Part shown: piece after piece, positions 18,684-20,408 of the stretch
Layout: each line of letters begins with the position of its first letter
Numbering within the stretch: the first letter of the stretch is position 1
Assembly (NCBI GenBank): GCA_934096405.1
Contig: CAKOLW010000003.1
Span: 3,282-67,281, forward strand
Origin: an uncultured Bacilli bacterium
GTDB lineage: Bacteria; Bacillota_I; Bacilli_A; RF39; UBA660
Reading direction: 5' to 3'
DNA length: 64,000 bases
Made by a program: the position numbers and the translations under genes
Notes under the pieces: generated by a model
What the model was told of the DNA's origin: nothing
Databases searched by the model: none
Seen by the model: the letters and a program-made list of their open reading frames with translations, nothing else

Positions 18684-20408
18684 ATGAGTAAAGAAAAGAA
18701 ATATATATTATTTGGTTTAGCATTAGTTTTAATTACTTTGTTGGGTATAACACTAGCATATTTTGTATCTAATGTTGAAGGAGGAAAAAGAACAGTTACA
18801 GTAAGTACTGGAGATTTAAGAGTAATATTTAATAATGGAGATAAAATTGAAGGAGTAGATATAGAACCTGGTTGGGAATTAACTAAAACATTTAGTATAG
18901 AAAATAAAACTAAAAGTGTATATAAATATAATTTAGTTATTCAAGATTTAGTAAATACATTTGCATCTGATAATTTAGTATATAAAATAACAAGTACTAA
19001 TGGTGGTTATAACATGACAGACTTTGAAGTACTACCAAAATCAGATACAGCAACAGATACAATATTAGCATATAGTTCTTCAATTAATGGAAAAGCAACA
19101 CAAGAATATACTATATCAGTTAAATTTAAAGAAGAAGATAGAAATCAAAAAGAAGATATGGGCAAAGTAGTAACAGGTAAGATTTATATAACTAAAGGAA
19201 CAGAAGGACCAATTTTGTTGAGTGAAGCAATATTAAGAGATAATCCCACAATAAGTGAAAGAACTTCATTTAGTAGTCCATTTAATGATACAACAACGGG
19301 AACATTGTTTACATCAACAGAAAGTATAACGGGAATAACAGATGTACCACAAGAAATTTACTATTATGCAGGGAATACAACTAATAACTGGGTAAAGTTT
19401 GGTAAAGAAACAATCAATGGGTGTATATATAATGAACGTAAAGTAAATTATATGTATGACACTGGATTCAAAATAGTTGAAACAAGTGATGAGTGTTCTT
19501 CAACCAATGTTTGTGTAGTATCTGATGACCTAATTCCATATGTTGGATTTACTGAGGAAACATGTAATTTAAACGGAGGCACATGGACTACAGAAAAGGC
19601 AACATATGTGACTGAAATGGTAAAAGATATATATTGGAGAATAATGAGAACAAATCATGATGGAAGTATAAGATTGCTATATGCAGGAACTAATCCCAGC
19701 ACAATTAATGCTTATATTAAAACAAGCAAAATTAATTCTTTAAATAATAGTCCAAAATATGCTAGTTATAAATATGGAGAGGATGATAGCACGTTAGATG
19801 AAATAAGGACTAATACAACTGATAGTACAATAAAAATGACATTAGATACATGGTATCAAAGCAACTTAACAAATTATACAAAATACTTAAGTACAAGTGC
19901 GGTATATTGTAATGATAGAAGCTTGGGAACAGGACAAACATATAGTTCGACAACAAGTTTTAGTTTTGCACCATATAAAAGATTATATACAGATAAAACA
20001 CCAACATATAATTGTAGTGATATAAGAGATTCATTCAGTGTAGAAAATACAAGTGCACAACTTACTTACCCAATAGCCTTAATGACAGCAGACGAAATAG
20101 CTTATGCGGGTGGAGTAATTGGACAAGACATGAATAAACCTTATGCTTGGTTTGCAGGTAATAGTAATGGCAGATCAATAACCGCTGGTGAGCTTATTGG
20201 ATGGTGGCTAATGTCACCTGCTGAATGGGATAGTAAAGTTGTAAGGACATGGTATTCAGATGCTGTTTATCCTAGTTTGAATACTCAACATACAGATACT
20301 AATTCTGCTGTTCGTCCAGTCATTTCTCTAAACTCTTGTGTCAAAGCAACAGGAACAGGAACTACTGATGATCCATATGTAGTGGATGAAAATAGTTCTA
20401 CATGTTAG
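18684..20408 (+). CDS. Paralog P3: TasA/SipW-type signal plus N-terminal domain plus conserved core (subtype A) with a Cys-rich insert
   Basis: The signal ...LLGITLAYFVSNVEGG resembles the SipW-dependent TasA/CalY signal (..GGGTxAxF). The core has TGTLFTSTESITGITDVPQEIYYYAGNTTNNWVKFG, YWRIMRTNHDGSIRLLY, AVYCNDRS, YPIALMTADE, WWLMSP, VRPVISLNSC and DPYVVDENSSTC. Confidence 0.85.
   Translation: MSKEKKYILFGLALVLITLLGITLAYFVSNVEGGKRTVTVSTGDLRVIFNNGDKIEGVDIEPGWELTKTFSIENKTKSVYKYNLVIQDLVNTFASDNLVYKITSTNGGYNMTDFEVLPKSDTATDTILAYSSSINGKATQEYTISVKFKEEDRNQKEDMGKVVTGKIYITKGTEGPILLSEAILRDNPTISERTSFSSPFNDTTTGTLFTSTESITGITDVPQEIYYYAGNTTNNWVKFGKETINGCIYNERKVNYMYDTGFKIVETSDECSSTNVCVVSDDLIPYVGFTEETCNLNGGTWTTEKATYVTEMVKDIYWRIMRTNHDGSIRLLYAGTNPSTINAYIKTSKINSLNNSPKYASYKYGEDDSTLDEIRTNTTDSTIKMTLDTWYQSNLTNYTKYLSTSAVYCNDRSLGTGQTYSSTTSFSFAPYKRLYTDKTPTYNCSDIRDSFSVENTSAQLTYPIALMTADEIAYAGGVIGQDMNKPYAWFAGNSNGRSITAGELIGWWLMSPAEWDSKVVRTWYSDAVYPSLNTQHTDTNSAVRPVISLNSCVKATGTGTTDDPYVVDENSSTC

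Follow-up and report, generated by a model that had tools for sequence, protein, structure and literature searches.

A candidate swappable four-cysteine mini-domain at the hairpin tip of lectin-like surface proteins in an uncultured gut Bacilli bacterium

The stretch of DNA analysed here (the window; 64,000 nucleotides, GC content 26%) corresponds to C3:3282-67281, on contig 3 of a 1.06-Mb assembly that is 94% complete. The open reading frame (ORF) translations include the housekeeping genes infB, uvrC, polC, aspS, ileS, and topA of a Bacillota-type organism, and the host is an uncultured, reduced-genome gut member of Bacilli. Eight large paralogous ORFs, P1–P8, all of them confirmed, are scattered among these housekeeping genes (Table 1). 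P3 encodes a secreted surface protein consisting of an N-terminal signal-anchor helix with a LAYF motif, a beta-sandwich stalk that weakly resembles TasA, and a C-terminal lectin-like head, and the element in question is a cysteine-bearing insert within this head.

The insert was defined as the residues between two anchors, NNW[FVI]KF[AG] and [YL]WRI[IM]RTN. The common core of the eight paralogs is alignable and the anchors are invariant, with N, N, W, K, and F fixed in the upstream one. Exact extraction of the inserts agreed within a few bases or residues with the coordinates and lengths given by an earlier sequence-only reading, and the anchors that it had placed on either side of a segment now measured at 2 to 78 residues are real in all eight window paralogs. 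Genome-wide, 30 paralogs occupying approximately 4-5% of the 1.06-Mb genome were counted, a lower bound because assemblies of this lineage tend to break inside paralogs; the contigs of two congeneric species (loci L099 and L100) start within a family gene upstream of rsmE. The site is closed by a 2-residue turn, mostly GF, in 18 of the 30, whereas three carry 19 cysteine-free residues, five carry 38-49 residues (2 or 4 Cys), and four carry 74-78 residues (4 Cys). The cassette type of P4 recurs in two further paralogs as well as in other genomes.

Among more than 6,800 database homologs, the best 120 show the same classes, and so do 79 loci in metagenome-assembled genomes (MAGs) of other gut Bacilli. 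The relatives are MAGs of about 0.9-1.4 Mb, namely uncultured Bacilli from Hadza and Nepal gut samples, CAG:628, UMGS1658, and UBA11492, with the record labels 'Clostridium sp. CAG:628', 'uncultured Tenericutes UMGS1658', and 'Bacillota UBA11492'. Besides the 2-residue turn, the classes comprise an 8-residue insert without Cys (K[ND]xxGxDL), a 19-25-residue insert without Cys (KYxxDDTSSxxLWKxGDD[IM]), a medium insert of 38-64 residues with mostly two Cys, the pair being invariant in a class of 40-64 residues (...YKEYSTM[DE]ECTSAxSYNxNC...GD[DP][IM]), and a long (L) insert of 73-92 residues with four invariant Cys. The inserts are discrete, individually conserved types.

Alignment of 16 diverse L inserts, 29-51% identical to that of P3, left C, Y, C, C, and C as the only invariant columns. 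The long inserts had been described as unrelated in detail; because they share these columns, they are instead homologous copies of one module, and the four-cysteine pattern noted in them is beyond chance. The cysteines are spaced C-x(23-45)-C-x5-C-x(13-20)-C, with no CxxC knuckles and no conserved His. When a profile of the insert alone was searched against 1.84 billion representative proteins, 30 of the 31 matches were family members and the last was a weak, spurious hit to an unrelated protein lacking the family anchors. The insert sequence had no PDB match at E values up to 10, and comparison with Pfam, including small cysteine-rich or zinc modules such as EGF, knottin, and zinc ribbon, returned single-member chance matches only. 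The four-Cys module thus appears to be restricted to this family and to be a previously undescribed unit.

Five members bear two modules in tandem within the same loop, with 8 Cys and 151-168 residues in total. A relative (P0140) carries a long four-Cys module, a second NNWVKFG anchor, a medium two-Cys module, and then YWRII, an arrangement best pictured as two cassette types joined by unequal crossover. By sequence, the insert types could not be related to one another, and a common origin of the medium and long cassettes is not claimed, the hhalign probability being below 1%. An intein or other self-splicing insert was rejected: such an element would need Cys, Ser, or Thr as its first residue, His-Asn at its end, and a nucleophile at +1, whereas the segment begins K-E-T, its last residues are K-D-I, and Tyr comes next.

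Family alignments served to build AlphaFold2 models of full-length P3 (mean predicted local distance difference test score, pLDDT, 88) and of the head alone, residues 176-574 (pLDDT 91.3, predicted template modelling score 0.89). The insert is modelled with confidence in both, and in the head model it has pLDDT values of 82-95 as 10-residue block means. The two anchor strands grow into a paired ribbon, one of 14 residues (236-249) and the other of 17 (307-323), and the tip, residues 250-306, comprises four short strands and two short helices. In insert-less paralogs the equivalent two strands are closed by the 2-residue turn, so the insert must exit the domain body at the hairpin tip, which suggests a stalk-and-knob projecting from the domain. 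The confidently modelled fold extending the hairpin and the tandem 8-Cys doubles of relatives bear out the idea of a discrete sub-domain on a constant scaffold. On these models, the tip of the first beta-hairpin is predicted to hold a Cys-bearing mini-domain that folds independently and is specific to the family.

The identity of the head was approached through its fold. The family sequence profile found no match in the PDB, and the fold search with the full-length model gave mostly generic beta-sandwich matches to the stalk, uninformative on the head. Foldseek comparison of the head model with the PDB yielded 9qa6 as the sole significant match (E 1e-4, probability 1.00, 308 columns). Against BFVD, phage 'DUF6273 domain-containing' proteins made up five of the ten best matches, including ranks 3 and 5, with template modelling (TM) scores of up to 0.60 on the target, and these head-model matches place P3 by fold in DUF6273 (PF19789). 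With the Pfam profile, P3 scored 19.5 bits at residues 484-550 (gathering score 23.5) and the other window paralogs gave no DUF6273 match. Two close homologs exceeded the cut-off, P0006 at 35.0 bits and P0008 at 28.5 bits, their matches covering only profile positions 116/127-171, the WWxxSP...VRP end. The P3 head is accordingly modelled as a DUF6273/C-type-lectin-like domain, a class whose lectin fold is known to be targeted in gut phages by diversity-generating retroelements (DGRs; PMC10743442).

The solved relative, 9qa6, is the immunoglobulin A (IgA) peptidase of Thomasclavelia ramosa (IgAse/ThomasA), whose N-terminal domain is annotated as DUF6273 and described as enlarged C-type-lectin-like (PMC12237041, PMC12402451). 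Both it and the P3 head have an enlarged lectin-like core with extra segments and are secreted by a gut Bacilli member. The 9qa6 domain, however, is only 13% identical in sequence to the P3 head, is fused to a metallopeptidase, and does not belong to a multigene family; its first hairpin is not described as bearing a nested four-Cys module, and the cysteines of the enzyme bind zinc.

The segment had been called hypervariable, a description contradicted by the diversity within two ortholog groups of 38 and 47 distinct sequences. Mean pairwise amino-acid difference was lower for the insert (0.067 and 0.072) than for the C-terminal scaffold (0.19 and 0.16); the N-terminal part gave 0.084 and 0.074. 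In a P3 strain variant, 97% identical and at the same polC-rsmE locus (L080), a single one of 76 insert residues is changed, with no synonymous change. Within a type, the ratio of non-synonymous to synonymous change (dN/dS) is higher in the insert (approximately 1; pooled 1.00 for type A) than in the scaffold (0.2-0.4; pooled approximately 0.3-0.4), but the counts are small and relaxed constraint accounts for the ratio equally well. A value near 1 fits either a weakly constrained exposed surface around a few fixed residues or diversifying selection. Between P3 and its strain variant, 33 of 39 nucleotide changes lie in the first 240 codons (window 18684-19403), where the proportion of synonymous differences (pS) is 0.11 against at most 0.006 in the remainder; this cluster looks like a recombination patch in the stalk.

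Diversity within the ortholog groups peaks between WWSLSP and VRP, with a second peak about 80 residues upstream. Between two relatives, the differences in WWSLSP...VRP fall at codon positions 1/2/3 as 15/15/1, with 30 non-synonymous and 0-1 synonymous differences and NNC-type codons. Seven paralogs on other contigs of the present genome have, in this variable region (VR), a GC content of 0.44-0.59 and 27-41% C-ending codons, compared with about 0.30 and 6% outside it. A 119-nucleotide, AAC-rich, non-coding core lies in a template repeat at C17:20973-21128 on the minus strand, about 157 nucleotides downstream of one VR paralog, and reads WSLSPINCNGNNANEWNWNSDNANLNNNNVNNTNAVRPV in the VR frame. 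Adenine makes up 30% of the template, yet 145 of the 210 mismatches between template and the seven VRs (69%) fall at template adenines, as do 84-89% of those in the best two VRs. Judged from these adenine-directed differences, the element on contig 17 is a DGR template repeat with multiple scattered targets, a pattern also reported for Treponema denticola, where one template serves several scattered targets (PMC4891356). A second, decayed VR/template-like fragment occurs at C27:7579-7740.

None of the eight window paralogs, P3 included, carries the DGR signature by GC content or codon usage; the equivalent stretch of P3 has a GC content of 0.39, 2% C-ending codons, and no AAC/NNC pattern. No PF00078 (reverse transcriptase) match was found in the 94%-complete assembly, nor is any of the ORFs after the template, a 56-residue ORF followed by a long ORF that may be read as phosphoglycerate kinase, a reverse transcriptase. 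Such an enzyme is encoded by seven of ten related genomes; in CAG:628 the reverse transcriptase gene follows a template-like repeat at a distance of about 900 bp, and in another relative it is just downstream of the 3' end of a family gene. DGR action on the insert was rejected, the reverse transcriptase being absent from the assembly and the signature lying in another segment.

The true hypervariable site is the C-terminal stretch from WWxLSP to VRPVISL and not the insert. The ligand-binding loops of lectin-like domains come after the WIGL-like strand, a position that fits the DGR's choice of target. The proposal that the insert is the ligand-binding determinant loses ground accordingly, as the DGR-hypermutated and most strain-variable part is another segment of the same domain. 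The head shares its fold class with Bordetella phage Mtd, Treponema denticola TvpA, and the gut-phage DUF6273 'tentaclins', and in this family WWxLSP...VRP is a VR, with adenine-directed differences from an AAC-rich template. It departs from these variable proteins in that the insert forms a second variable site, driven by recombination and located at the opposite end of the domain sequence; P3 itself lacks the DGR signature, and the assembly lacks a reverse transcriptase.

How the inserts vary was examined in the DNA of seven genes from different metagenomes. Four of the seven are at one locus, with upstream flanks 93-98% and downstream flanks 91-95% identical and the same helix-turn-helix neighbour; two of them carry insert type A and two type B. 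Between types at this locus, N-terminal dS is 0.10-0.26, whereas the inserts have a dS of about 1 and a dN of 0.64. Within a type, insert dS is just 0.02-0.13, and type A inserts differ by a dS of only 0.04 in genes that have unrelated upstream DNA and an N-terminal dS of 0.62. Old alternative alleles at one locus, together with the same insert in anciently diverged genes, indicate exchange of the insert as a cassette. The insert classes are scattered over the scaffold tree; the L class requires four changes, at least three of which are forced by well-supported branches, and a single origin of the long insert was rejected on this ground. On this sequence evidence, insert variation appears to arise by whole-cassette exchange and not by hypermutation.

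At the P3 locus, the syntenic gene beside rsmE in two congeneric species has GF in place of the insert. A clean insertion or deletion is unsupported there, because the syntenic genes are only 48-57% identical to P3; as the neighbouring rsmE is 80-82% identical, replacement of the whole segment is more likely. The tandem genes P6 and P7 (window 44612-49253) have 92-100% DNA identity over a 5' kilobase (about 44800-45770), which falls abruptly to about 45-60% just before the head, and they carry different cassettes; stalk and head seem to have recombined independently. The 42 nucleotides ending at the upstream anchor show 80% DNA identity among 28 paralogs versus 48% for a control segment. For the downstream anchor the figure is 83%, with exact runs of at least 20 nucleotides in 20% of pairs, and over the anchors as a whole such runs occur in 12-20% of paralog pairs, making the anchors plausible recombination substrates.

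Cassette-type surface variation by gene conversion is familiar from Neisseria pilE/pilS and from mycoplasma multigene families. The present family resembles them in its many paralogs, conserved blocks flanking variable segments, mosaics, and exchange. It differs in that no silent, promoterless donor array is seen and all copies look complete, and in that the exchanged unit is a folded mini-domain nested in another domain.

Taken together, 19404-19631 is, in our judgement, probably a swappable four-Cys mini-domain at a hairpin-tip cassette site of a lectin-like head whose C-terminal loops form the primary binding site, which this lineage diversifies by a DGR. A more ambitious proposal, in which one head combines two independent diversification devices, DGR writing of the C-terminal loops and recombinational swapping of the four-Cys unit, with balancing selection keeping old alleles, is tentative and may well not hold. 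If true, it would make the mini-domain a second host-, antibody-, or phage-facing determinant in a 1-Mb genome.

The chemistry of the cysteines separates one alternative from this reading, namely that the four invariant Cys bind structural zinc and that the module acts as a rigid spacer or stabiliser, playing no part of its own in recognition. Insert Cys counts are nearly always even (0, 2, 4, or 8, with rare exceptions of 3 or 5) and the P3 scaffold holds two more conserved Cys pairs, C409/C444 and C552/C574, which favours disulfides. No DsbA-like (PF13462), DsbB (PF02600), or VKOR (PF07884) gene was found in the whole genome, despite an abundant exported family with conserved, mostly even cysteines. 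The T. ramosa IgA peptidase, with 24 Cys, has no disulfides; up to eight zinc sites are coordinated by about 15 of these Cys, some in Cys-rich extracellular modules (PMC12237041). With no recognisable disulfide-forming enzymes and with zinc-bound cysteines in the closest solved relative, the disulfide stabilisation suggested by the sequence-only reading is putative, and zinc binding by the insert cysteines is a live alternative, to which the anaerobic gut habitat also lends weight. As a full account of the module it is nonetheless rather unlikely: the spacing shows neither CxxC knuckles nor a conserved His, the medium class retains just two Cys, for which a single disulfide fits better than a metal site, and the scaffold cysteines also come in conserved pairs.

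The view that the insert is a hypervariable, disulfide-stapled loop and itself the main ligand- or receptor-binding determinant we consider improbable. It can call on the essentially always even Cys counts, the large differences in insert length and type among paralogs, a within-class dN/dS near 1 and above that of the scaffold, and two deeply diverged insert alleles at one locus. It has to contend, however, with an insert less diverse than the scaffold, with 18 of 30 paralogs that keep the domain without the insert, with a DGR that writes elsewhere although in known systems it is aimed at the lectin-fold ligand surface, and with the missing DsbA-like, DsbB, and VKOR genes. An indel-tolerant loop holding functionless passengers would explain why most paralogs do without an insert and why the within-class ratio is near 1, but it is very hard to reconcile with five invariant positions across different genera at 29-51% identity, a module kept in 30 representative clusters and tandemly duplicated, a confident fold in the AlphaFold2 models, and two old allele classes maintained at one locus; we regard it as highly improbable.

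Under the favoured reading of an exchangeable mini-domain, the hairpin tip would be a cassette site that holds either a 2-residue turn, one conserved insert type, or, in relatives, a tandem double. Homologous recombination or gene conversion, acting through the anchors and their flanks, would transfer cassettes, and the module would project from the head as a stalk-and-knob. Its putative role would be to alter the exposed surface of the head, affecting antigenic identity, a secondary contact, or reach, while the C-terminal loop region would serve as the primary, finely tunable ligand-binding site, its loops diversified in this lineage by the DGR. Several points weigh against this picture. The medium and long classes share just an ...EC.S...C motif of 16 hhalign columns, and the number of synonymous changes behind the within-class dN/dS near 1 is small, 1-6 per pair. 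It is from topology and secondary structure in the models that the module is predicted to project and be exposed to solvent, and recombination at the anchors themselves is something we infer from sequence identity. In addition, the IgA peptidase of T. ramosa does not need its N-terminal domain for catalysis (PMC12237041).

Heads of the DUF6273 type occur widely on the surface proteins of gut bacteria and on the receptor-binding proteins of gut phages, and here a very small gut genome devotes approximately 4-5% of its DNA to one surface protein type. Variation is predicted to be layered, with many paralogs, exchangeable stalks, an exchangeable nested mini-domain, and a DGR-written binding site. 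The position of the four-Cys module shows where the lectin fold tolerates insertion, which informs the natural evolution of these proteins and offers a possible grafting site for engineered DGR scaffolds. Moreover, the dimorphic A/B alleles at one locus provide a concrete case in which balancing selection by host immunity or phages can be considered.

Table 1. Coordinates of family genes, insert sites, and diversified stretches (window positions; entries prefixed C refer to contigs of the assembly)
Feature	Position	Strand	Description
P1 ORF	1544-2998		
P1 empty site	2162-2167	+	2-aa turn NY
P2 ORF	3009-4418		
P2 empty site	3648-3653	+	2-aa turn GF, most frequent state in genome
P3 ORF	18684-20408	+	574 aa, secreted paralog; head ~aa 176-574
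P3 upstream anchor NNWVKFG	19383..19403	+	aa 234-240; first hairpin strand
P3 long (L) cassette	19404-19631	+	76 aa; Cys at aa 247, 271, 277, 294
P3 downstream anchor YWRIMRTN	19632..19655	+	aa 317-324; second hairpin strand
P3 WWLMSP...VRPVISL stretch	20202..20330	+	DGR VR position in relatives and seven other paralogs
P4 ORF	30691-32211		
P4 short cassette	31405-31461	+	19 aa, 0 Cys, KYTTDDTSSKKLWKSGDDM
P5 ORF	37642-39435		
P5 L cassette	38401-38634	+	78 aa, 4 Cys
P6 ORF	44812-47049		
P6 L cassette	45937-46158	+	74 aa, 4 Cys
P7 ORF	47064-49253		
P7 medium cassette	48240-48380	+	47 aa, 4 clustered Cys
P8 ORF	58909-60570		
P8 medium cassette	59611-59742	+	44 aa, 4 Cys
DGR-type VR paralogs (start)	C2:53604, C8:49054, C9:29538, C14:35054, C17:21285, C18:8778, C27:7896		

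The paralogs also differ in how the head is displayed. A signal-anchor with LAYF and a beta-sandwich stalk is present in P3, P4, and P8; P8 has a weak TasA/camelysin (Peptidase_M73) Pfam match (E 0.01, below the cut-off), and the full-length P3 model matches the TasA fibre 8aur with a probability of 0.99 and a low TM score. A SipW-type (archaeal-type) signal peptidase I is encoded at C16:11784-12254 (TIGR02228, 105 bits against a cut-off of 51.85), which fits the LAYF-type leaders of most paralogs. The N termini of P1 and P2 match Pfam N_methyl at 29.6 and 30.6 bits (cut-off 21.2), and P1 also matches TIGR02532 at 27.1 (cut-off 16.3). Both have the prepilin-type cleavage/methylation motif GFxxxE, which is absent from P3, and these leaders point to P1 and P2 as modular type IV pilins, for which Streptococcus sanguinis PilB and PilC are examples in Gram-positive bacteria. 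As in PilB and PilC, the prepilin motif of P1 and P2 is followed by a globular binding-type module. Unlike in those proteins, the grafted module is a DUF6273 lectin-like head, and most paralogs, including P3, carry a SipW/TasA-type leader and stalk. In the adjacent genes P1 and P2, the lectin-like head is thus displayed also as a modular type IV pilin.

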